A model generated the notes under the pieces. It had not been told where the DNA came from, did no database searches, and saw only the letters and a list, made by a program, of their open reading frames with translations. A DNA stretch of 64,000 nt from Candidatus Levyibacteriota bacterium (GTDB taxonomy: Bacteria > Patescibacteriota > Microgenomatia > Levybacterales > UBA12049). Positions within the stretch are counted from its first letter, which is position 1; every line of letters starts with the position of its first letter. Where the stretch lies: NCBI GenBank assembly GCA_016432345.1, contig CP066685.1, forward strand, positions 112,236-176,235, written 5' to 3'. The translations under genes were made by a program, and so were the position numbers. Shown in pieces: positions 3,906-60,721 of this stretch.

Positions 3906-3940
3906 TAATTTCTAATTCTTAATTTCTAATTTCTAATCAA
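3906..3940. repeat. Heptamer tandem array, 5 units: TAATTTC TAATTCT TAATTTC TAATTTC TAATCAA
   Basis: Read directly; lies in the purF-purC spacer. Confidence 0.9.
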
Positions 3941-3952
3941 ATCCAAATGTTT

Positions 3953-4008
3953 AAAAATTAAATATTAAAAATTGAATGAAAATTAAAAATTTAAAATTGA
4001 AAATTTGT
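3953..4008. repeat. AT-rich 7-nt-phased array, 8 units: AAAAATT AAATATT AAAAATT GAATGAA AATTAAA AATTTAA AATTGAA AATTTGT
   Basis: Read directly; extends into the last codons of purC (...TNFQF*). Confidence 0.75.
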
Positions 4009-9394: not shown

Positions 9395-10147
9395 TTATAG
9401 GATAAATTTGTTGATAATGTCAACTATGCCGTCGTTTTCCACAGTCGGGGCGACATAGTCGGCTATTTCTTTTAGTTCTGGCACCGCATTTCCCATGGCA
9501 ATTTTTAGTCCACAACTCATCAGTAGTGGGAAATCATTATACCCATCTCCTACACCAATCATATCATGGGTTTTAAACCCTAGCAATTTGGCAACTTCAA
9601 AAACACCATGCTGTTTGGTAGCTTTGGCATGGGTAATAGTAATGCAAAAAAAACCTTTATTCCAGGAGGGCACTTTGTGAGCAGCGATGTTTGGCAGATG
9701 CGAAATTTTTGCAATAAGACTATCTGCTTGAGGGTTTGTAAAATCATGGCCAATATAGATTTGAAAAACCCGCTTTGGAATAGATTGAAACGGCGGGTAG
9801 ATATTGGCGTTGTCGTTAGTAAACCAAAAAGAAATACCCTCTTTTGTTAAAATTTCGGAAAGTATTGCAATATCTTCCTGATCCATTGGCTGTTCCCATA
9901 CAAAATCACGTGTTGTGCTATTAATAATCTGTGATCCTCCGTTAATAGTAGAGTATCCGTTTAGAGATAAATGATCAAGAATGTTTTTGACATAAATATA
10001 TGGTCGAGAAGTGGCCAGGCAAATATGGACATGTTTTTTTGCCTTTGTTATAGCTTTTGTTACTGCAATAGAAGGTAATCCTCCTTTTTGATTAAGAATA
10101 AGCGTGCCGTCAAGATCAAGCATAAGCGCTTTATATTTTCTTTTCAT
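9395..10147 (-). CDS. HAD-superfamily (Cof-type) phosphatase
   Basis: LMLDLDGTL near the N-terminus and GVGDGYNDFPLL near the C-terminus. Confidence 0.75.
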   Translation of the reverse strand: MKRKYKALMLDLDGTLILNQKGGLPSIAVTKAITKAKKHVHICLATSRPYIYVKNILDHLSLNGYSTINGGSQIINSTTRDFVWEQPMDQEDIAILSEILTKEGISFWFTNDNANIYPPFQSIPKRVFQIYIGHDFTNPQADSLIAKISHLPNIAAHKVPSWNKGFFCITITHAKATKQHGVFEVAKLLGFKTHDMIGVGDGYNDFPLLMSCGLKIAMGNAVPELKEIADYVAPTVENDGIVDIINKFIL

Positions 10148-10155
10148 TCTGTGGG

Positions 10156-11857
<1,702 letters not shown>

Positions 11858-24925: not shown

Positions 24926-25681
24926 ATGAAGATACTCTCTTGGAATGTGTGGAGCGAGAATGTATCGATAACAAAAGCTATACGCTTTCTAAAAAAACAA
25001 AAAGCAGATATTATTTGTTTGCAGGAAGTTTCAAAAAAATTTTTGCAAAAATTAAAAAAACTTCCTAAATACCAGCTAGTTTGCGCAATTGATTTTTACT
25101 ACATAAAAAGTAAAAAAAGAAAGACTCCTTATTTTCTAGTCATGCTATCCAAAATTTCAATTGACACACATAAGGCGTTTCAGATTCCAACCGTGCAATA
25201 TGACTCAATTATTGCGCAAATCTTTGGCCTTGAAGAATGTATAGAAGGACAATACATAGACGTTATGTATAAAGACCAAAAGATCAGAATATTTAACGTT
25301 CATTTTCAATCCTATGTTCGGCCAAAAATTAGACTTAGACAATTTGAAAGTGTAATTCAGCAGTTTAATAATACGACACATAATATTGTTTGCGGCGATT
25401 TTAATACATTTGGATTTTGGCATTTTAATGTGGTGGTTGGGTGGATTTATAATTATTCCTGGGAAGAATTTTTTATGGATGAAAAAACACTGCTTGATGA
25501 AAGGCTTAAAAGATATAAACTTATTAATATATTTAATTGGGAAGTAACGTATCCTTGGCTTGGAGTGCAATTAGATTTTATATTAACGCAAAAAAATGCA
25601 AAAGTTCGCGGCAAACAAGTATTTCAAGAGACATTTGGATCAGATCATAGACCGATATTAGCAAATGTGCATATCACATAG
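24926..25681 (+). CDS. Endonuclease/exonuclease/phosphatase (EEP) family protein
   Basis: MKILSWNVW...DIICLQEV...CGDFNTF...GSDHRPILANV. Confidence 0.8.
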   Translation: MKILSWNVWSENVSITKAIRFLKKQKADIICLQEVSKKFLQKLKKLPKYQLVCAIDFYYIKSKKRKTPYFLVMLSKISIDTHKAFQIPTVQYDSIIAQIFGLEECIEGQYIDVMYKDQKIRIFNVHFQSYVRPKIRLRQFESVIQQFNNTTHNIVCGDFNTFGFWHFNVVVGWIYNYSWEEFFMDEKTLLDERLKRYKLINIFNWEVTYPWLGVQLDFILTQKNAKVRGKQVFQETFGSDHRPILANVHIT

Positions 25682-32891: not shown

Positions 32892-33554
32892 ATGAAGAAG
32901 ATATTAATTGTTGGAAATTGGAAATCAAACAAGACAGAGATTGAAACCAATGAATGGTTTCAGAGATTTACGATTTACGATTTACGATTTACGAATAAAG
33001 AAATCATCATTTGTCCGCCGTTTACATTATTATCAAATCTTAAATCATCAATCTTAAATCATAAATCTTTTATTAAGTTGGGTGCGCAGGATATTTCGCC
33101 GTTTGATGAAGGTGCTTATACGGGCGAGGTAAACGGGAAGCAAATTAAAGAGTTTGCCGACTATGTGATTATCGGCCATTCAGAACGAAGACGGTATTTT
33201 GGGGAAAGCGAAGATATAATTGTTAAAAAAATAGAAATGGCGCAAAAATACGAATTAACTCCAATAGTCTGTGTATCAGATATTAAGCAAGCTGAAAACT
33301 ATACGCGCTATACGCTAATTATCGCTTATGAACCGTTGTTTGCAATTGGTTCGGGAAACCCCGATACGCCGGAGAATGCAAATGAGATGGCCAAGAAAAT
33401 AAAAGAAATAATTGATGCTCCTGTTATCTATGGAGGGAGTGTAACCTCGCAAAATGTAAAGAGTTTTACTCAAATGCCAAGTATTGATGGCGTATTGCCT
33501 GGAAAGGCAAGTCTTGATGCTAACGAATTTGCAAGCATTATTGAGAAAGCATAA
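32892..33554 (+). CDS. tpiA: Triosephosphate isomerase
   Basis: MKKILIVGNWKSNKT...IIGHSERR...IAYEPLFAIGSG...YGGSV. Confidence 0.9.
   Translation: MKKILIVGNWKSNKTEIETNEWFQRFTIYDLRFTNKEIIICPPFTLLSNLKSSILNHKSFIKLGAQDISPFDEGAYTGEVNGKQIKEFADYVIIGHSERRRYFGESEDIIVKKIEMAQKYELTPIVCVSDIKQAENYTRYTLIIAYEPLFAIGSGNPDTPENANEMAKKIKEIIDAPVIYGGSVTSQNVKSFTQMPSIDGVLPGKASLDANEFASIIEKA
32965..32999. repeat. Heptamer array inside tpiA: GATTTAC x4 then GAATAAA
   Basis: Read directly; encodes ...RFTIYDLRFTNK... Confidence 0.95.
33035..33069. repeat. Heptamer array inside tpiA: AAATCTT AAATCAT CAATCTT AAATCAT AAATCTT
   Basis: Read directly; encodes ...SNLKSSILNHKSF... Confidence 0.9.
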
Positions 33555-36587: not shown

Positions 36588-38738
36588 TCAATAGACTTGG
36601 TAGATTTTTGTCTGATTATTTTGGTAAATAATTTTTCCTAAACGATCAAATTTTTTGATATTAAGATTTGGGTATTTTTGGCGTTCTAGGTCGCCTATAA
36701 ATATGAGGGAAATCTTGTATTTATCCATGAGTTGTTTTGTGCTGGTAAGATCACTTGTTTCATAAAGCATTTTTACTTCGTTAATTCGGGGTGCTGGAAT
36801 ATCGTATGTTCCCCGCCACAGCCATTCATGGACTGTCCATCCCAAAACCGTTGGCAAACCGGTATTGCTGGAAACTCGTGCATAGTCGGTGTACGAATCC
36901 CCTTGTGCCTCGAGGATTACCGGTTGTCCTTTTATATTTTTATTTAACCACCCAATTGCATTGTAGTCAGTCGGATATTGTTTTTTAAGGTATGCTGTTC
37001 CGTCAAGACCATAATATGTTTGCAAATTACCATAGTAAGAATTGATAGCAAAGTAAGGGTAAATAGATACGAGCAATACAAGAATTGTAGCAAGTAGTAT
37101 ATAGCATGTAGTACGTACATAATACCTAATACTTAATACTATCCGAAGGATAATATATCCCGAGGAGAGAGAAAGCATCATAAAGGATTGATAGACAAGT
37201 TTAAACATGGTATTGGCTCTGTAGTGGGCAGGGTAGATATCTTTTACATAGATAAATTCGGGGAGGATGATCAAAACAGCGGATAGGAGAATTAAGAGTA
37301 AGACGAAAACATCACTAGCGTATAGCGTATAGTGTTTAGTTTTTAGTTTTTTCCAGATAAAAATAAGAAAGGATACTGCCCAGAAGCAAAAAAAACCATA
37401 CAATATAAGCATCTGCCACCAGGGCGAGTGTTGACAGTGGTCTTTCTCAAATAAAAAAGGTCCAATTTTTCCAATATCCGTTAAAAAATTGGGCGCACAT
37501 AAGACGCCTATGCCGGAAACAAATGGTTTGAAATGTAACGAAAATGGAAGGGAAAAAAGAAAAAAACCAGCCAGGATTAGCGTATAGCGTATAGCGTATA
37601 GCGTATAGTTTTTGGAGCGATGAGCAAGATAGAAAAAGATAAACAATGTTAGTAGTCCATAAATAATGCCATCCCAGGCATTGGTCATATACATGATTGC
37701 TAATAAGAAGCTTATTAGCAAAATTTGAAATTTGAAATTTGAAATTTGAAATGAATTTTTATTTTTATAATTTTTAATTTGATTGAAAATTGAAAATTGA
37801 AAATTGAAAATTAAAGAGAGTAGTACTGCTATTGTCATCAACACAAACGGAATGTCTATAACATGACCGTGGAGATCGGAAACAACAAATGAGTACATGG
37901 GGAATTCGTGAATAGTGTTGTGAATAAAACGGGTAGCATTTGGGTACCAGTAGTTATTTGGGAGAGTATTTGGAGAAAAAGCAAGTTGCCAGACAGGAAC
38001 GGGATTTTCGTTGGTATAAGGTTTGAAAAAGGTGTAGATAGTATGTAAATTTCCAGCCATAGATACTAGAAATGCTGTCAGTACCCCTCCAATTATTAAA
38101 ACTTTTAAGTTTTGAATTTTGAGTTGATTGATGAGATTTGCACCGATAGAAAAAGAGCAGGTAAAAGTAAAAGCAAAAATTGTTGCCAGCATAAGATTGT
38201 AGGTCATGTTTGATGGAAGCATTGATGCTTTTGTCAAAACAGCAGTTACCAAATGACCAAAGTAATAGTAGTTGATCGAGAAGGGAGTAAACCACATATC
38301 TTTTGGTGGGAAATAATCGGCTCGAAGAATTGAATTAATAAATCCAAAATCCATGTATTTTTCCAGTCCGTGAATATCTGGTTGAAAACCACGAATGTAT
38401 GACCAAAATACTATTCCTGCAAAGAAAAGCAGTTCTTCAAAAAGAAAAATACGTATTGTTGACTTAGTATTCTTTTTTAGAATAAATGTGTTTATTGCAA
38501 CAAATAAACTTGCTATTAAGAAGATAGTTGAGAATGTAAAAGGAAGAATTTTTAACGTTCCTAAAACAAAAACAGCGTAGCTTACAAAAGCCATGCCCAG
38601 TATTTTAGAGAAGATATATCCTTTATCAAAAAAGTTTGAAAATATCAGGGTGGTTATCGGGAGGAAAATAATCCCTATTAAAAAAAATACAAACCACCAC
38701 TGGATAACAAAATAAAAATCAGATAAAGACATATGCAC
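36588..38738 (-). CDS. Large polytopic membrane protein, DUF2298 / 'YYY' family (GT-C-like)
   Basis: 716 aa; ...FSINYYYFGHLVTAVLTK... is the YYY signature; C-terminal soluble domain ...GQPVILEAQGDSYTDYARVSSNTGLPTVLGW... Confidence 0.6.
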   Translation of the reverse strand: MHMSLSDFYFVIQWWFVFFLIGIIFLPITTLIFSNFFDKGYIFSKILGMAFVSYAVFVLGTLKILPFTFSTIFLIASLFVAINTFILKKNTKSTIRIFLFEELLFFAGIVFWSYIRGFQPDIHGLEKYMDFGFINSILRADYFPPKDMWFTPFSINYYYFGHLVTAVLTKASMLPSNMTYNLMLATIFAFTFTCSFSIGANLINQLKIQNLKVLIIGGVLTAFLVSMAGNLHTIYTFFKPYTNENPVPVWQLAFSPNTLPNNYWYPNATRFIHNTIHEFPMYSFVVSDLHGHVIDIPFVLMTIAVLLSLIFNFQFSIFNQIKNYKNKNSFQISNFKFQILLISFLLAIMYMTNAWDGIIYGLLTLFIFFYLAHRSKNYTLYAIRYTLILAGFFLFSLPFSLHFKPFVSGIGVLCAPNFLTDIGKIGPFLFEKDHCQHSPWWQMLILYGFFCFWAVSFLIFIWKKLKTKHYTLYASDVFVLLLILLSAVLIILPEFIYVKDIYPAHYRANTMFKLVYQSFMMLSLSSGYIILRIVLSIRYYVRTTCYILLATILVLLVSIYPYFAINSYYGNLQTYYGLDGTAYLKKQYPTDYNAIGWLNKNIKGQPVILEAQGDSYTDYARVSSNTGLPTVLGWTVHEWLWRGTYDIPAPRINEVKMLYETSDLTSTKQLMDKYKISLIFIGDLERQKYPNLNIKKFDRLGKIIYQNNQTKIYQVY
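37121..37141. repeat. Heptamer array AATACCT AATACTT AATACTA
   Basis: Read directly; lies inside the YYY gene. Confidence 0.8.
37317..37351. repeat. Heptamer array AGCGTAT x2, AGTGTTT, AGTTTTT x2
   Basis: Read directly; the sense strand encodes ...KTKHYTLYAS... Confidence 0.95.
37579..37613. repeat. Heptamer array AGCGTAT x4 then AGTTTTT
   Basis: Read directly; the sense strand encodes ...KNYTLYAIRYTL... Confidence 0.95.
37699..37719. repeat. Perfect 9-bp inverted repeat GCTAATAAG-aag-CTTATTAGC next to the arrays
   Basis: Read directly; lies within coding sequence (...LLISFLLAI...). Confidence 0.9.
37721..37755. repeat. Heptamer array AAATTTG x4 then AAATGAA
   Basis: Read directly; the sense strand encodes ...FQISNFKFQ... 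Confidence 0.95.
37782..37816. repeat. Heptamer array ATTGAAA x4 then ATTAAAG
   Basis: Read directly; the sense strand encodes ...FNFQFSIFNQ... Confidence 0.95.
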
Positions 38739-42560: not shown

Positions 42561-43787
42561 TTAGATAATTTGTGCAATTTTTTCTCCAAGTTCTACCGCG
42601 TAGTTTGTGCCGCGATCCCAAGGATAGACCTGTTGCATATTAGCAAGGAAAACATTTTTTAATGGTGTTTCTAGTGTTGGTATTATTTTTGAATAATAGG
42701 TAGGAATAATCGGCTGGGCGAAAGGAGCTTTAAACAGCGTATAGTTAATAGCGTCTAGCGTATAGTTTGGATTTATTTTTCGTAGATAAGGATCATAGAT
42801 TTTTAGAAGTTCATTAGCAGATAATTTCATGTAGGGGTGGTCGTGGGGAACATAATTGCCAAGATAAACGATATGTTCATTATTATAATGTTTAGAATCC
42901 ATAAAATTAGTGTGTTCGACAATTGCCATGATGGGAGATTCTTTGTCACAAATACTTAGCCAATAGGTATTGTCAGGTAAAAATGGTTTTTTGAGACGAA
43001 GAATAAGGTTTATTGCACCTAATCCTTTTAATTGCAGCAGGTTTTGTTTATAAACATTTGGTAGTTGTGGAGCGATTTTGACAAAATAAAACGATGGTAA
43101 AGTGACGATGATCTTATCAAAATTTTTCAACTGTTTTATTTCTCTAATTTCGGTATTAAATAAAAATTTTCCCCCATTTTCTTCAATTTTTTTTACCAAT
43201 GCATTTGCGAAAGTAAGGAAACCGCCCGATGGATAGGCAAGTTGTGCTGTTCGTTTATTAATCCTTGCCCAAAACCAGGCCAGCGAAATATCATCGGCAT
43301 AATCCCCAAATTTATTATGAAGTTGGGGCTCCCAAATTGTTTGATAGGCATTTTTCCCCATGGCGTTTTGTAAAAATTCATTCGTTTTTATACTCTCGAG
43401 TGGTTGCCAAAAGGGATTGTATTTTAAGCTTCCAAGAATTGCAGCCATCCGCAAACGATCATAAATCTTTAGTTTGGGAAATTGGAGTAGATGGAGCGGA
43501 GAGTCGAATTGATAGATTTCACTATCAACGTAGACAGATGTTTTGGGCCGTTTTATGATAATTTTATGATCAATTTTTCTTGCCAGCGAAAGAATAGAGT
43601 TATCGTTTGTAAACCAATGATGATAATGCTTTTCCAATGTCCATTCCCAGTTTTTTTCTAAATAGCCAACTGCCAGTCCGCCGGGATTTTGGTCTTTCTC
43701 AAAAACATAAACTTTGTGTTTTTCTTGAGAAATATAATAAGCTGCAGAAAGACCGGTAAATCCTGCGCCGATAATAGCTATTTTCAT
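42561..43787 (-). CDS. FAD/NAD(P)-binding oxidoreductase (amine-oxidase / protoporphyrinogen-oxidase / UDP-galactopyranose-mutase-like superfamily)
   Basis: MKIAIIGAGFTGLSAAYY...VFEKDQNPGGLA (dinucleotide fold); ...HYHHWFTND... and ...IVEHTNF... are reminiscent of mutase-type members. Confidence 0.7.
   Translation of the reverse strand: MKIAIIGAGFTGLSAAYYISQEKHKVYVFEKDQNPGGLAVGYLEKNWEWTLEKHYHHWFTNDNSILSLARKIDHKIIIKRPKTSVYVDSEIYQFDSPLHLLQFPKLKIYDRLRMAAILGSLKYNPFWQPLESIKTNEFLQNAMGKNAYQTIWEPQLHNKFGDYADDISLAWFWARINKRTAQLAYPSGGFLTFANALVKKIEENGGKFLFNTEIREIKQLKNFDKIIVTLPSFYFVKIAPQLPNVYKQNLLQLKGLGAINLILRLKKPFLPDNTYWLSICDKESPIMAIVEHTNFMDSKHYNNEHIVYLGNYVPHDHPYMKLSANELLKIYDPYLRKINPNYTLDAINYTLFKAPFAQPIIPTYYSKIIPTLETPLKNVFLANMQQVYPWDRGTNYAVELGEKIAQII
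42735..42769. repeat. 35-nt heptamer-phased element AGCGTAT AGTTAAT AGCGTCT AGCGTAT AGTTTGG
   Basis: Read directly; the sense strand encodes ...PNYTLDAINYTLF... Confidence 0.9.
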
Positions 43788-48633: not shown

Positions 48634-50397
48634 ATGAAACGTGAACAGATTCGTAATTTTGCCATTATTGCCCACATTGATCATGGAAAATCAACTTTGT
48701 CGGATCGTTTTTTAGAGATTTGCCACACGATATCTAAAGAAAAAATGAAGCCGCAATTGTTAGATTCCTTGGCGCTTGAGCGAGAGAGAGGAATAACTAT
48801 AAAACTAGCTCCAGTGCAAATGCACTATACGCTAAACGCTGTAAACTATACGCTAAACTTGATTGATACGCCTGGTCATGTTGATTTTTCCTACGAGGTA
48901 TCTAGGGCATTGGCTGCTGTTGAGGGAGCGATTTTACTGATTGATGCAACACAGGGAATTCAGGCCCAGACGCTTTCGCATGGACTTTCTGCCCTATCGC
49001 AAAATTTGCGGCTTATTCCTGTTATTAACAAAATTGATTTGGCCAATGCGAATATCGAAGCTTGCAAAAAACAATTTATAGAGACGTTTGGTTTTTCGGA
49101 AGAAGAAATTATTTTGGCGTCAGGTAAGTCTGGAGTTGGAGTTATAGAAATTATTCAGGCCATTGTTGATCGAATTCCACCTCCTACCGTTGACACAGAA
49201 AAACCACTTCGGGCGTTAATTTTTGATTCTTTTTTTGACGCTTATAAAGGGGTTATAGCGCAAGTAAAAATTGTTGATGGGGAAGTTCCATCGCCCGGAC
49301 AAAAGATAAGATTTCTTGGAACAAAAGCAATGGGTGAGGTTTTAGAAAAGGGGTATTTTTCTCCAAGCCTTAAACCTATCGAAACACTTATCTCGGGAGA
49401 AATTGGGTATATTGCAACAGGTATTAAAGAACCAGATAAGGTGCATGTTGGTGATACGATAGCTGTGAGTGATATTGCGCCATTGCCTGGTTATAAAGAA
49501 GTTAAGCCAATGGTATATGTTGGATTGTACCCGATAGACCAATCGGAGTTTCACCAATTAAAAGATGTATTAGGGAAATTTAGATTAACGGATCCGGCTT
49601 TTTCTTACGCCTTGGAACATTCTGCGGCGCTGGGCGCTGGTTTTCGGTGTGGGTTTTTAGGGCTTTTACATGCCGAAGTTGTCCAACAGCGATTGTCAGA
49701 AGAATTTGGGATGGATTTATTGGCAACTACCCCATCTGTTGAATATCTTAATGGGGACGAAAAAATTACCAGTCCTGCGGATATTGATCCAATGTCAACT
49801 GAAAAATTAAAGGAGCCATGGGTATCTATACAGATTTTTAGCCCAAAAATTTACATCGGTAGTATTATGGAGGAAATGGCAAAAAAGCGTGGCGTTTTCC
49901 AAAATCAGAAATATTTTGGTTCGTCCGTTGAGCTTCAATACCTTATGCCGTTGGCAGAGATGATTACTGATTTTTATGATAAATTAAAGTCTGTTTCGTC
50001 GGGTTTTGCCTCTTTGGATTGGGAATTTTTGGAATTTCGTCCTGTTGACGCGGTTAGAATAGATTTTTTAGTGGGTGGAGAAAAAGTGGATGCTTTGTCA
50101 ACCATTGTGGTTAGGAATAAGGCAGAAGGAATTGGGCGGAAATTAGTGGAGAAACTAAAAGATGTACTGCCTCGGCAAAACTTTGAGATTGCAGTTCAAG
50201 CGGCAATTGGTGGAAAAATTATTGCTAGAGAAACAGTGTCTGCATATCGAAAAGATGTTTTAAAGAAAATGTCCGGCGGAGACAGAACCAGAAAAGACAA
50301 ACTTTTGGAAAAGCAAAAAAAGGGCAAGAAAAAAATGAAGATGGTAGGGCGGGTCGAAATACCCCAAGAAGCTTTTTTAAGTATTTTAAAATCCTAG
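48634..50397 (+). CDS. lepA: Elongation factor 4 (LepA)
   Basis: IRNFAIIAHIDHGKSTLSDR...LIDTPGHVDF...NKIDL... plus the LepA C-terminal domain. Confidence 0.95.
   Translation: MKREQIRNFAIIAHIDHGKSTLSDRFLEICHTISKEKMKPQLLDSLALERERGITIKLAPVQMHYTLNAVNYTLNLIDTPGHVDFSYEVSRALAAVEGAILLIDATQGIQAQTLSHGLSALSQNLRLIPVINKIDLANANIEACKKQFIETFGFSEEEIILASGKSGVGVIEIIQAIVDRIPPPTVDTEKPLRALIFDSFFDAYKGVIAQVKIVDGEVPSPGQKIRFLGTKAMGEVLEKGYFSPSLKPIETLISGEIGYIATGIKEPDKVHVGDTIAVSDIAPLPGYKEVKPMVYVGLYPIDQSEFHQLKDVLGKFRLTDPAFSYALEHSAALGAGFRCGFLGLLHAEVVQQRLSEEFGMDLLATTPSVEYLNGDEKITSPADIDPMSTEKLKEPWVSIQIFSPKIYIGSIMEEMAKKRGVFQNQKYFGSSVELQYLMPLAEMITDFYDKLKSVSSGFASLDWEFLEFRPVDAVRIDFLVGGEKVDALSTIVVRNKAEGIGRKLVEKLKDVLPRQNFEIAVQAAIGGKIIARETVSAYRKDVLKKMSGGDRTRKDKLLEKQKKGKKKMKMVGRVEIPQEAFLSILKS
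48827..48861. repeat. 35-nt heptamer-phased element (sense) ATACGCT AAACGCT GTAAACT ATACGCT AAACTTG
   Basis: Read directly; encodes ...HYTLNAVNYTLNL... just before the IDTPGH motif. Confidence 0.9.
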
Positions 50398-56958: not shown

Positions 56959-58387
56959 CGTAAATCATAATTTGTTCCTGATAGTCTTTTATAGAAAATG
57001 GTATAGATTGATTGTGGGACGAAACAATAAAAGTTGGTTTTATTTTATTTATTGCTATTTGTGTTTCTGCAAGTGTCTGCGGCGATGATGTTATATGGTA
57101 TGCAACGATAAATCGGCCGGGGGGAAGTTCATTTAGAAGCGCATACACTTGTCCATTATTTCCCCAAATAAATACTGTGTCATTTTTTTCCATGTGTGTT
57201 TTAAGATAGCTTGCAATTGCATAATCGGCTGGTGTATGTTTGTCAAAAAAACTTTGGTATGCAGCTACACTTTTTTTGTTAGCAACAAAAGATAAATAAT
57301 TTTCGTAATAAGAGAATATTTTTGTATAAAAAGTGAAGTTTAATCCAACAATAATTATTGTAAAGAAAAGCATAAGACCGACAATTTTTTTATATGCTTT
57401 TGTTTTGTTTTCTGTTAGAAAGAGTCCTAGCATAAGAGAGAAACTTGGGAGTAAAATCAGCAGATAATGCGTGTATGGTCTTTGAGAAAAAAAGGTATTA
57501 AAAAGGGAAAATATAAACCAAATGAAAATGAAAAGTTCAGATGAAGAGAATAAATTTCTTTTTTTGAAAAGAAAAATAGAGCCAGAAAATAAGAAGAAAA
57601 GTTTTAACAAGAGTAATCCTTGTGGAATGAGGAGACGATTGCCATAACTTACGTAGCCAATATTTTGACGAAGCGTTGCTTCTAAAAAGGGCGTGAAAGC
57701 GCCTTTAAAGAAGAAAAACGCTGCTGTAAGAAAAAGAGGAACTGCAAATGCAGCAAAAAATAACATAAGATGTTTTATAATTTGGTTTATAGATTTACTG
57801 CTGTTTTTTTCTATATAAATAAGAAAGAGGGTAAATGCCGCAAAATCAAAAATGGCGACAATTTTAAAAAGAAAAGCAAGAGAAAGGAAGAAGCCAGCAA
57901 TAATAAGCGTATAGGGTTTAGCGTTTAGCGTATAGTTGTAAATTAAAAATCCTGCGAGAATAATTGGAAGGAGCATAAAGTTTTCGGCATTGGCGATGTT
58001 GCCTTCTAAAAGAGGAAGTCCAAATAAAAGCGCAAAAAAACCAACGGATAAAAAAACTGCTTTTTCAGCTTTTAATAGTTTCTTCGAAATTAAATAAAAA
58101 GTAAAAACTGCCAGAATTCCAAATACAAAAGATAAAACTCGTAAACTAAATTGATCTGAGGAAAAAAGAGCATAGATAATATAGAGAAGCGGAGGCTTGT
58201 TGTCCCAAATATCTTTATAAAGCAATCTATTCTCATTTAACGCAATGCCAATGACTTGGTAAATTCCTTCGTCGCCATACCAATATGGTTCTATAAACGA
58301 AGGAAGACGCAATAAGAAAAATACTACAGTTACGCCAATTAAAAACCAGCAGTCTTTAGTTTTCTCGATTTTTGTCAGTAATTTCAT
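56930..58387 (-). CDS. GT-C membrane glycosyltransferase (ArnT/PMT-like)
   Basis: 485 aa; first loop ...YWYGDEGIY...DIWDNKPPLLY... is typical of family 39/83-like enzymes. Confidence 0.65.
   Translation of the reverse strand: MKLLTKIEKTKDCWFLIGVTVVFFLLRLPSFIEPYWYGDEGIYQVIGIALNENRLLYKDIWDNKPPLLYIIYALFSSDQFSLRVLSFVFGILAVFTFYLISKKLLKAEKAVFLSVGFFALLFGLPLLEGNIANAENFMLLPIILAGFLIYNYTLNAKPYTLIIAGFFLSLAFLFKIVAIFDFAAFTLFLIYIEKNSSKSINQIIKHLMLFFAAFAVPLFLTAAFFFFKGAFTPFLEATLRQNIGYVSYGNRLLIPQGLLLLKLFFLFSGSIFLFKKRNLFSSSELFIFIWFIFSLFNTFFSQRPYTHYLLILLPSFSLMLGLFLTENKTKAYKKIVGLMLFFTIIIVGLNFTFYTKIFSYYENYLSFVANKKSVAAYQSFFDKHTPADYAIASYLKTHMEKNDTVFIWGNNGQVYALLNELPPGRFIVAYHITSSPQTLAETQIAINKIKPTFIVSSHNQSIPFSIKDYQEQIMIYDAQVYEKKF
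57907..57941. repeat. 35-nt heptamer-phased element AGCGTAT AGGGTTT AGCGTTT AGCGTAT AGTTGTA
   Basis: Read directly; the sense strand encodes ...YNYTLNAKPYTLII... Confidence 0.9.
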
Positions 58388-59881
58388 TTATAACTTTTCG
58401 GTAACTTTATATTCAAGTCGCTTCCCAAACATCAGTTGGGTATGGGAAATAATAGCTGGAAGCGTTGATAGAAAAAATCCAACTATTGGTAAAAGGACAA
58501 ACTCAAGCGGAAAAAGAAATTGTTTAGCTGTAGAAACACGGGTGTCTTTTGGTCGTTGGCGATAATCAATTATTATCATAATAAGTGTGGCAAAAAGACA
58601 AAAGGTAAGAATAATGCCAGCCAGTCGTGGAAGATTGTACCCAAGTGTTGTTCGTGAGAAAGCAGGGTTTATAAAGGGCATAATGTTGGCCGCAACGGTA
58701 ATAATGAACCAATTAACAGGCCAGAGAAAATGGTCCAAAAGCACGTAGAAAAGCATCATGGTTTTTTGTACAAATGGCACACCAGGAACTGTTAGCCACC
58801 ATTTAATAAATACTGGGTCGTCTGATACTCCCCACGACCATCGTCTCTCTTGATCATACTTATTTTTAAGGGTTTTTAAGTATGTTGAAGACAATGGTGC
58901 ATCCATGGAGGTTTTTAAGAAAATTGGCTCTACATAGGCGTTGCCTTTGAGTATATAAAATGCCTTAAAAAAGATGCGGTAATCTTCTGGAATAACATCT
59001 GTATCCCAAAAATCAATTTGCCGCAAGAGCCGCAATGAGAGCGAGTAGGTGGAGTTGGCAACCAAGCGATCTTTCTGAACCAAAAGACCTGTTCGCCACA
59101 GACTGCCAAAAAAGGATAAAACGCGGATAGGAGCTGGAACTTTCCAGAAATTATTATAATTAACATTTGCAGATTGCCAAAATGTGTTGTATTTATTTTT
59201 GTTGGAGAGAAATTTGTGTGTTAGATACGCAAAATACTGCCTATCAAAAATGGAGTCGGCATCAACGGAAGAGATGGTGGCAAAGTCCTCGTTAATAACG
59301 CCCTTTTCTACCCAAACTATATAGGCTTTTTTAGCGGCAAATGCTTGGTTTGATGATTTTCCTTTTACTTCTCCTGGCATATCTGTATGGAAGGTGGCAA
59401 TCATTCCGCCAAATTTATAGCCAAATTCTTGGATAAGAGTATTAGCTTTTTGTTGGACATCTTGTTCTCTCTCTTCCATCCCCAAAACGACAAAGAGCTT
59501 TTTTGTGGTAATGGTTTGATTTGCAATAGAAGCAATTGATTGGCGAAGCTTTTCAATACTTTCTTTATAGTTGGGAATAACAATTACGTGGGTTATTTTT
59601 TTAAACTCTTTTAGCGTTTTTACTTCTTTTACCCAATCTTGCGCTTCGGCCCTTCGAATGCGGCGTGAAGCTATAAAGGCGGTTATTGCCAAGGAGAATG
59701 ATTTGTAAAACCAATAGACATCAAAAAAAAGAATAAAATAAGCAAGGGCAAGAGGGAAAAAAAGCGATCCCCAGATTGGGAAAAAGATTAGCGTCCAAGA
59801 AATTACTCCTGGCAATAGCTCAAGAGCACGTCGTGTTTTGACAGGATAGCGAGTAAAAATTCTATCGAAAAAATGGGTCAT
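58388..59881 (-). CDS. Membrane-embedded family-2 glycosyltransferase (processive, cellulose/chitin-synthase-like)
   Basis: ...VIVIPNYKE...SVDADS...QERRWSWG (D, DxD, Q-x2-RW pattern); TM segments on both sides. Confidence 0.75.
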   Translation of the reverse strand: MTHFFDRIFTRYPVKTRRALELLPGVISWTLIFFPIWGSLFFPLALAYFILFFDVYWFYKSFSLAITAFIASRRIRRAEAQDWVKEVKTLKEFKKITHVIVIPNYKESIEKLRQSIASIANQTITTKKLFVVLGMEEREQDVQQKANTLIQEFGYKFGGMIATFHTDMPGEVKGKSSNQAFAAKKAYIVWVEKGVINEDFATISSVDADSIFDRQYFAYLTHKFLSNKNKYNTFWQSANVNYNNFWKVPAPIRVLSFFGSLWRTGLLVQKDRLVANSTYSLSLRLLRQIDFWDTDVIPEDYRIFFKAFYILKGNAYVEPIFLKTSMDAPLSSTYLKTLKNKYDQERRWSWGVSDDPVFIKWWLTVPGVPFVQKTMMLFYVLLDHFLWPVNWFIITVAANIMPFINPAFSRTTLGYNLPRLAGIILTFCLFATLIMIIIDYRQRPKDTRVSTAKQFLFPLEFVLLPIVGFFLSTLPAIISHTQLMFGKRLEYKVTEKL

Positions 59882-60693
59882 AGTCTAAAAATTGCTTTGG
59901 CGTTTTTGGTTGTTTGCGTATCAACTTCCTCAAGCGAAATACCTTTAATTTTGGCTATTTCTTGCCCTACTAGTATAGCATATTGCGGTTCGTTTCTCTT
60001 GCCCCTATAGGGTATTGGAGTAAGGTAGGGACTATCTGTCTCGATAACAATTCGATCAAGAGGTACGTAGTTTACAAGTTCGGAAAGTTCGGTATCCTCA
60101 CCAGGAGCTAATCCTTTATAGGTAATATTACCGTCAAAGCCTACATAAAAGCCTAAATCAAGCACTTTTTTGGTGAATCCAATATTTCCTGAAAAACAAT
60201 GAAACATTCCAGGAGGATTAAAGATTAATGATTTATGATTAATGAGAATATCTAAAATTTCTTTTCCGGCGTGGCGGTTGTGGATTTGCAAAGGTAATTT
60301 AAGCTTATGAGCAAGTTCAATTTGCTGTATAAAAATTTCTGCTTGTAATTTTGGGTCGGTAATGCCGTTTGATTGGTATCGGTAGTTATCCATACCAATT
60401 TCGCCAATAGCCACTACTTTTTTGCTCGATTTTGCTATGGTTTTAAGTTGTGTAAGCCAATCTGTTCCAAGTTCGATTTTGTCTGCATGGTGGGGGTGAA
60501 CGCCCACAATGGCATACATTTCGCCAGCTGGCGAATCGTATTTTTCTGCCAGTTCGACAGCCTTCTGGCTGGAATCAATCTTGGTGCCAACATTTATAAT
60601 GGTTGTTACACCGGCCGCAAAAGCACGTTTTGCAACCTCATCGTAGTCATTATCATAAGCTTGAAAATTAAGGTGGCAATGGATATCAATCAT
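59878..60693 (-). CDS. tatD: TatD-family metal-dependent hydrolase
   Basis: MIDIHCHLNF...GEIGMD...HNRHA...ETDSPYL. Confidence 0.88.
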   Translation of the reverse strand: MIDIHCHLNFQAYDNDYDEVAKRAFAAGVTTIINVGTKIDSSQKAVELAEKYDSPAGEMYAIVGVHPHHADKIELGTDWLTQLKTIAKSSKKVVAIGEIGMDNYRYQSNGITDPKLQAEIFIQQIELAHKLKLPLQIHNRHAGKEILDILINHKSLIFNPPGMFHCFSGNIGFTKKVLDLGFYVGFDGNITYKGLAPGEDTELSELVNYVPLDRIVIETDSPYLTPIPYRGKRNEPQYAILVGQEIAKIKGISLEEVDTQTTKNAKAIFRL

Positions 60694-60721
60694 AGATTCT
60701 ATTATAATAGATTCTATTATA
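60692..60721. repeat. Perfect 15-nt tandem duplication ATAGATTCTATTATA x2
   Basis: Read directly. Spans the tatD start codon and the tatD/SemiSWEET divergent spacer. Each copy carries a TATTATA(A) -10-like box. Confidence 0.9.

Follow-up and report, generated by a model that had tools for sequence, protein, structure and literature searches.

Short CTAnnCG heptanucleotide arrays overwrite coding sequence in a Levyibacteriota genome and recur in more than ten phyla

A sequence of about 35 nt that is found in several unrelated genes of a Candidatus Levyibacteriota bacterium, a member of Microgenomates in the candidate phyla radiation (CPR), is a short array, about four units long, of the 7-nt repeat CTAnnCG, mostly CTATACG and CTAAACG. 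The source is a metagenome-assembled genome (MAG) of 762,565 nt, and our reading covered a 64-kb stretch of it, hereafter the window. Proteins QQG40856 to QQG40880 belong to the window. GC content of the window is about 36% and about 89% of it is coding; the Levybacteria genome is very compact. The sequence had been noticed in an earlier examination of the letters alone (the sequence-only reading), which described a 35-nt element inserted in frame. We found that the arrays overwrote tolerant beta-hairpin or loop segments of the host proteins and left protein length unchanged. With moderate confidence, we regard them as heptanucleotide simple-sequence repeats of the CTAnnCG family that are kept by DNA-level repeat dynamics.

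The 9-mer CTATACGCT occurs 14 times in the window against 0.25 expected, and none of 100 shuffles reached 14. The sequence-only reading had counted 13 copies and expected about 0.5 or fewer; the enrichment is real. Chance expectation for this 9-mer is 0.25-0.45 copies per window, and the commonest enriched 10-mer is CTATACGCTA. The copies lie at seven loci (Table 1), all of them intragenic and on the sense strand of the host open reading frame (ORF). All multi-unit loci enter the repeat in the frame xxC-TAT-ACG-CTx. The claim that every locus uses the same frame therefore holds for the multi-unit loci, which read TAT-ACG-CTN, but not for the single copy at 24978, which reads GCT-ATA-CGC and could be there by chance. 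We counted 11 Tyr-Thr-Leu (YTL) tripeptides in the window, and nine of them are encoded by TAT-ACG-CTN (TATACGCTN), while ACG accounts for 11% of Thr codons; CTA accounts for 11% of Leu codons. The earlier argument from the ACG codon is borne out by these figures, and the codon identity supports the view that the likeness lies in the DNA and is not protein convergence.

Tandem Repeats Finder and register analysis revealed 4.4 perfect units at 37578-37608 and degenerate four-unit arrays at 42736, 48825 and 57906. The three degenerate arrays, in the genes for a flavin adenine dinucleotide (FAD)-dependent oxidoreductase, LepA and a GT39/PMT_2 glycosyltransferase, are near-identical composites of the form CTATACG CTA[A/G]ACG CTnnnnn CTATACG CT. 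Their near-identity had been described correctly, with coordinates about 1 nt off. The 35-nt element is not a unit in itself, however, but a heptamer array, and the lineage has many other arrays of period 7. The related arrays that had been pointed out also exist, but the "YYY gene" that carries some of them encodes a DUF2298 membrane protein, and the two copies in tpiA are 9 nt apart, not 7.

The complementary strand of the arrays reads TAG-N4-TAG-N4. Stop codons close every frame of this strand at the FAD, GT39 and two DUF2298 loci; at lepA two frames are closed, and at tpiA one. Because the opposite strand carries TAG every 7 nt, the sense-only orientation is largely forced. All copies at the seven loci are indeed on the sense strand, but this rule is not supported as evidence of function. 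After allowing for stops, the residual strand bias has a chance probability of about 0.2 by a rough estimate. The stop-codon argument for orientation was made earlier by MacGregor for TAACTGA repeats (PMC4679880).

The idea that the sequence was inserted in frame is contradicted by comparison with homologues, in which lepA, tpiA and the FAD gene show no length gain. At the array, LepA is one residue shorter than Thermus EF4; there the beta-hairpin flanked by GITIK and NLIDTPGH is the product of the array. TpiA has gained no length at the CTATACG site or at a second site, (GATTTAC) x4.3. In the FAD oxidoreductase no gap is present at the array site in 119 of 120 homologues, and the exception is a 7-residue insertion. 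The DUF2298 arrays sit in loops whose length differs among orthologues. Array-free homologues already show Y-x7-Y-x-L at the lepA site and at the FAD site. A small mobile element that had entered in frame, after the manner of the Rickettsia palindromic elements, would account for near-identical 30-32-nt modules in unrelated genes and genomes, and those elements are likewise repeated DNA lying in frame within unrelated ORFs. They are, however, palindromic insertions of 100-150 bp that add residues, whereas the CTAnnCG arrays are 30-35 nt long, are not palindromic and add no residues, and orthologous sites hold other units. The likeness to Rickettsia elements was thus not upheld, and a mobile element is hardly credible here.

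The composites and the perfect array, examined on both strands, gave no fold better than shuffles (z -0.67 to +0.75) and no palindrome. On these z-scores a structured RNA or hairpin element was rejected. An N-glycosylation sequon (N-Y-T) was rejected, LepA and TpiA being cytoplasmic. Primase initiation at CTA, or another replication-strand effect, was also rejected, since arrays lie on both strands in one stretch of uniform GC skew. DUF2298-GT39 paralogy as the source of the shared flank YTLI(I/L)AGFFL found no significant support (E = 0.066), and synonymous sites of this flank differ. The sequence CGGGTAGCGTT presumably recalls the ops site of RfaH, but the match is imperfect.

Table 1. Heptamer arrays and single motif copies located in the window.
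Feature	Position	Strand	Sequence or product
FAD-dependent oxidoreductase, composite array	42736..42765	-	CTATACG CTAGACG CTATTAA CTATACG CT; encodes NYTLDAINYTL
lepA, composite array	48825..48854	+	CTATACG CTAAACG CTGTAAA CTATACG CT; encodes HYTLNAVNYTL, beta-hairpin directly before NLIDTPGH
GT39/PMT_2 glycosyltransferase, composite array	57906..57935	-	CTATACG CTAAACG CTAAACC CTATACG CT; encodes NYTLNAKPYTL
DUF2298 loop, perfect tandem (CTATACG) x4.4	37578..37608	-	encodes NYTLYAIRYTL
DUF2298, array	37316..37339	-	CTAAACA CTATACG CTATACG CTA; runs on from (AAAAACT)n array at 37330-37351
tpiA, two CTATACG copies 9 nt apart (33299, 33308)	33299..33316	+	encodes NYTRYTL directly before IIAYEP strand
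Exo_endo_phos gene, single CTATACGCT	24978..24986	+	read GCT-ATA-CGC
tpiA, perfect (GATTTAC) x4.3	32964..32996	+	overprint by a different heptamer, no length gain
DUF2298 loop, (CAAATTT)n and (CAATTTT)n arrays	37720..37815	-	other units, same phenomenon
CTATACGCT start positions	37317, 37324, 37579 to 37600 (DUF2298); 42736, 42757 (FAD); 48825, 48846 (lepA); 57906, 57927 (GT39)		

Period-7 arrays are in excess in the whole lineage. We gathered 80 metagenomic loci (819 kb) of related Levybacteria via the FAD protein alone; the motif was not used for the choice. With a criterion of at least three copies and at most one mismatch, this DNA has 59 arrays of period 7, 23 of period 6 and two of period 8; the window has six, two and none, respectively. 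Of 58 distinct period-7 arrays, including those of the window, 47 are inside ORFs. Heptamer overprinting is a general property of the Levybacteria lineage.

The units differ between orthologues. At the site of the window array, the 11 FAD codons of the closest lineages consist of arrays of AAGTTAC x4.5, TTTGAAC, CAGTTGT x4, CTTATCG/A, AATTATA, CAACTAT x5 or CAAATTT, and more distant FAD homologues read DYKKNLIGYELF at this site. Lag-7 identity of at least 0.65 was found in 12 of 72 distinct orthologous FAD sequences, and in none of the 72 at lags 5, 6, 8, 9 and 10. A second FAD loop and the DUF2298 loops are also built from heptamer arrays that differ among orthologues, and the first FAD loop and the DUF2298 loops, made of such arrays in orthologues, differ in length as well. 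The orthologous counterpart of the DUF2298 array at 37316-37339 in locus L130 is CTAGACC CTAAACG CTATACG CTAAATG. Units match their array-mates more than the orthologous array, which indicates that the arrays evolve in concert in a 7-nt register with no net change of length.

Other arrays in the window have other units. Further period-7 arrays are at 37116-37140, 37330-37351, 37720-37815, 60216-60245 and 3906-4005; the units of these further arrays are TACTTAA, TAGTTTT, AAATTTG/AAAATTG x13, GATTAAT, TAATTTC and TTAAAAA. Five arrays lie within the DUF2298 gene alone. The tpiA gene has an additional array at 33035-33069, (AAATCWT) x4.7, with about two extra residues compared with solved triosephosphate isomerase structures, so this essential glycolytic gene holds three separate short-repeat overprints. 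The related units GAAATTG and CAATTTT reappear at non-orthologous loci of other Levybacteria contigs.

The array in lepA could be followed through Microgenomates. The 120 best LepA homologues are all from Microgenomates where the source is named, and the hairpin is readable in about 111 of them. YTL is present on both hairpin strands in 48 of these and on one strand in 42, and the protein motif NYTLNAxxYTLNLIDTPGH is clade-wide. This motif is itself the translation of the heptad array. We read lepA DNA from loci that had not been chosen by the motif. The Levy type is CTATACG ... CTATACG (window, L220, L140 and L130), and the Daviesbacteria type is CTATACC CTAAACG CTATACC CTAYACY (L217 and L218). 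The two Thr codons co-vary within the gene, as ACG/ACG, ACC/ACC or ACT/ACT. In the first half of the array, Leu is CTA in six of eight sequences and Ala is GCT in six of six; overall third-position identity of divergent lepA genes is only 34-47%. Conservation or convergence of a Tyr-Thr-Leu hairpin at the protein level, with the likeness of DNA incidental, would agree with the 48 LepA proteins that have both YTL motifs and with the Y-x7-Y-x-L that array-free homologues keep at the lepA and FAD sites. It would not account for the identical reuse of rare codons, for synonymous positions that are conserved in the array and not in flanking invariant residues, or for the heptamer register that holds in Daviesbacteria DNA too. 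We consider it very unlikely.

In several LepA proteins of Microgenomates, 6-14 extra residues lie exactly between the YTL heptads (L130 lepA, P0128, P0130, P0152, P0166, P0169, P0199, P0228 and P0241). The L130 insertion, the sole case read at the DNA level, keeps the flanking CTATACG units. The middle of the lepA array may be an indel hotspot. Some 3 kb downstream of lepA, L218 has a diversity-generating retroelement (bAvd and reverse transcriptase, 9421-10805), which probably has no connection with the heptamers.

Near-identical modules recur across genomes in different genes. In L101 the lepA array is the same 32-mer, AACTATACGCTAGACGCTATTAACTATACGCT, as in the window FAD gene; the lepA array of L140 and intergenic arrays in L140 and L016 are almost identical to it. 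A near-copy of the GT39 module is in the FAD loop of L143. Such dispersed modules are explicable by short-patch conversion between arrays that share CTATACGCT ends, or by selection for a defined sequence.

The family is not confined to CPR. We scanned one genome per species with the pattern CTATACGCT-N12-CTATACGCT, and at least 120 stretches matched; the CTAnnCG family is present in at least 110 genomes from more than 10 phyla. Since the unconstrained middle fits CTAnnCG in 112 of 124 among the matches listed, most of these are family members and not chance hits. The phyla among the matches listed are Atribacterota, Omnitrophota, Planctomycetota, Elusimicrobiota, Patescibacteria, Bacillota, Acidobacteriota, Aerophobetes and others. 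In the same matches, from other phyla, 86 of 126 copies are intergenic, gene boundaries are common and inverted pairs are frequent. Arrays between co-directional genes number 34 and 35 in the two orientations, with a median length of 31 nt. An intergenic array in the TAG orientation adjoins the stop codon upstream (median gap 3 nt) or itself provides it, and one in the CTA orientation lies about 27 nt before the next predicted start, a distance biased by ORF calling. A (UAG-N4)3 RNA site of the HutP type was rejected, because UAG-N4 is only antisense to the host genes and the intergenic strands are used 34 versus 35 times. Rfam, searched at the gathering threshold with the window and 19 array-bearing loci, returned tRNAs only and no matching family. 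A literature string search with six rotations of the tandem sequence found no paper, and a search of the CPR and heptamer literature found nothing specific. Viral contigs gave seven matches, with true arrays in one uncultivated virus genome only, so that an origin from phages is not supported. In Elusimicrobia, arrays of a CTAGGGG unit (L032, 2812-3000, and L035) lie directly beside five copies of the 21-nt repeat CTATACGCTAGCCCCTCGCCC. In these loci CTATACG heptads can sit within longer 21-nt super-repeats.

How could repeat dynamics keep these arrays? Among the long simple-sequence repeats of bacteria, the heptameric ones are the over-represented class, and slippage of the polymerase has been put forward as the cause (PMC4679880 citing Mrazek 2007; PMC4692102). 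We infer a mechanism of slippage and conversion, and coding copies that have no dedicated function. Replication that slips, or misaligns transiently, in a 7-nt register would homogenise neighbouring units within an array. Short-patch conversion between arrays with common CTATACGCT ends would spread particular versions. Purifying selection would act only against versions in which the frame, the length or a key residue (such as Tyr or Leu) is lost. A perfect heptamer with TAY gives Y-x-(L/I/V) automatically, which fits the Y-x7-Y-x-L hairpins of array-free homologues. Homogenisation would slow divergence and could account for the conserved synonymous sites of lepA. The gene conversion that the sequence-only reading had offered among its explanations fits the co-variation of the lepA Thr codons, the 32-mer common to the FAD gene and the lepA of another genome, and the differing orthologous units.

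Several points weigh against this explanation. Slippage by one unit shifts the frame, and a length-neutral overprint needs paired, 21-nt or templated events, none of which was directly observed. One unit family at seven loci, recurring as near-identical 30-32-mers across genes and genomes and in more than 10 phyla, is not obviously predicted by pure mutation. The scan for spread covered the CTAnnCG format alone. In the first half of the lepA array, the mean majority fraction at third positions is 0.84, compared with about 0.55 in flanking invariant residues (Levy type and Daviesbacteria). In the few genomes seen, a small sample, the lepA unit matches a second array: L218 has CTATACC x4 in another gene, like its lepA, and L220, L140, L130 and the window use CTATACG. 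This suggests that the lepA unit variant tracks the other arrays of the genome. Synonymous conservation and unit match fit a trans-acting factor equally well.

It is conceivable, though rather unlikely, that CTAnnCG heptads are functional sites of a trans-acting factor that would bind contiguous 7-bp heptads in either orientation, that coding copies are moulded by selection, and that dialects follow the specificity of the factor. The model for such a factor is the omega/ParB protein of pSM19035, which needs at least four contiguous 7-bp heptads in any orientation (PMC9499535). About four contiguous units in direct and inverted arrangements are typical of CTAnnCG arrays, and the even intergenic orientation among the matches listed points to a role at the DNA level. 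The occurrence in more than 10 phyla with fitting middle units, the synonymous-site conservation in lepA, and the agreement between the lepA unit and that of the second array (CTATACC in L218; CTATACG in L220, L140 and the window) would also be expected of such sites. However, no candidate protein can be named, the genome-specific unit variants come from about five genomes, and why there should be sites within lepA and tpiA is not obvious. At the orthologous positions in FAD and DUF2298 other heptamers are present, so any heptad is tolerated there, which argues against a fixed recognition sequence. More broadly, selection for the sites of a conserved factor that reads a 7-bp register across many mostly uncultured phyla, with specificity drifting between lineages (CTATACG versus CTATACC), might have rewritten essential genes such as lepA throughout Microgenomates, and NYTLNAxxYTL would then be dictated by a DNA signal. 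We think this improbable.

The arrays may instead be contingency loci of envelope-glycosylation genes (DUF2298, GT39 and the FAD enzyme of the same cluster): 7-nt slippage would switch the frame, or steps of 21 nt would alter a loop, with phase or antigenic variation as the outcome. 7-bp repeats drive phase variation of high-molecular-weight (HMW) adhesins in Haemophilus (PMC8262952). Perfect arrays of at least four units are found in DUF2298 (37578-37608 and 37720-37815), the unit length is not divisible by 3, the host genes cluster with GT39, GT2 and MurJ genes, and the length-variable DUF2298 and first FAD loops are heptamer-built in orthologues. But slippage would be poor in the degenerate composites of lepA, FAD and GT39. 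The lepA and tpiA genes are housekeeping genes, yet tpiA holds the perfect GATTTAC x4.3. No length polymorphism was observable, because short-read contigs break at the arrays: protein clusters at 90% have one member each, and Logan short-read contigs (k=31) end at arrays. We regard contingency loci as a doubtful explanation.

Contigs of the same organism in Logan stop inside arrays, and the full-length FAD, tpiA and DUF2298 proteins are hence missing from those assemblies. L215 and L216 end at window position 37784, within the (CAAATTT)n/(CAATTTT)n array, and L001 starts at 42739. Proteins from the edges of the window led only to short Logan contigs. In practice, assemblies from short reads break at heptamer arrays, and in an alignment such arrays can pass for "conserved protein motifs".

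An uptake-type signal of a naturally competent CPR bacterium, genome-wide and tolerated where the peptide is acceptable, was also considered. The strong over-representation of the 9-10-mer, the placement at poorly conserved protein positions, as with uptake signal sequences (USS), and type IV pilus genes in the window would suit it. Uptake signals are lineage-specific, whereas this family is in more than 10 unrelated phyla, and the tandem heptamer architecture is unlike that of USS or DNA uptake sequences (DUS). The density in the window is about 0.1 loci per kb (7 in 64 kb), compared with about 1 per kb for USS/DUS. In the 819 kb of related DNA the 8-mer was found 21 times against 25 expected, which is no overall enrichment. 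An uptake motif, one of the possibilities raised in the sequence-only reading, is accordingly scarcely probable.

We return to repeat dynamics, for which known heptamer systems offer comparisons. TAACTGA repeats of Beggiatoaceae, Cyanobacteria and Bacteroidetes (MacGregor 2015, PMC4679880) and the cyanobacterial short tandemly repeated repetitive (STRR) sequences resemble CTAnnCG in having a 7-nt unit in short arrays of 2-6 copies. In TAACTGA, too, stops fill the three frames of one strand, ORFs therefore hold the 'reverse' orientation only, arrays lie at gene boundaries overlapping upstream stop codons, and the repeats are scattered across distant phyla (PMC4679880). In contrast, CTAnnCG has another unit, with two variable positions; its window copies are all intragenic, in conserved housekeeping genes and not at protein termini; and it shows length-neutral overprinting and synonymous-site conservation. 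The Xanthomonas and Nostoc GGGNATC repeats (Rehm 2015, PMC4692102) and the long simple-sequence repeats (LSSRs) of Mrazek 2007, as cited there, share the excess of heptamers over other periods and a preference for about four units. Intergenic GGGNATC copies that directly follow a stop are on the coding strand, and those that directly precede a start are on the non-coding strand (PMC4692102), which is similar to the intergenic placement of CTAnnCG. Unlike GGGNATC, CTAnnCG is not G-rich and has no G-quadruplex potential, and GGGNATC is depleted in ORFs (PMC4692102) while CTAnnCG in the window is inside ORFs. STRR, TAACTGA and GGGNATC repeats are predominantly intergenic; in the window all seven of seven CTAnnCG loci are intragenic, and among the matches listed from other phyla most copies are intergenic, as given above. 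The heptad operators and parS sites used by the ribbon-helix-helix (RHH) omega/ParB system of pSM19035 (PMC9499535), the only well-understood reader of DNA in a 7-bp register, are similar in architecture only: at least four contiguous 7-bp units, direct or inverted. Their sequence is WATCACW, they are in plasmid promoter regions and the cognate protein is known, whereas CTAnnCG in the window is intragenic and its protein would be hypothetical.

CTAnnCG is a new unit family among known heptanucleotide repeats, set apart also by the intragenic overprinting of housekeeping genes, by concerted evolution and possibly by genome-wide co-variation. That heptanucleotide repeats are in excess in bacteria became known with the STRR work and the survey of 2007, and such repeats have so far counted as intergenic. 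Here, a repeat family that is absent from Rfam and from the literature searched is common to more than 10 mostly uncultured phyla. Compact CPR genomes have heptamer arrays written over conserved coding sequence; these arrays dictate the LepA hairpin across Microgenomates and evolve in concert. Orthologous sites with different units, together with variants that may track genomes, provide a natural test system for a 7-nt slippage register of the polymerase versus a heptad-reading factor.

Some other short words are repeated in the window. The palindrome GCCGCGGC, which contains CCGCGG, is at four sites (11032, 36121, 47461 and 55621); counted on both strands, this is 8 against 0.14 expected. Six GCGGCATTT/AAATGCCGC sites are present, and words of the (A/T)GCCGC type are likewise over-represented. 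A perfect 15-nt direct repeat, ATAGATTCTATTATA x2, is located at 60692-60721, at the end of the ORF 59878-60693.

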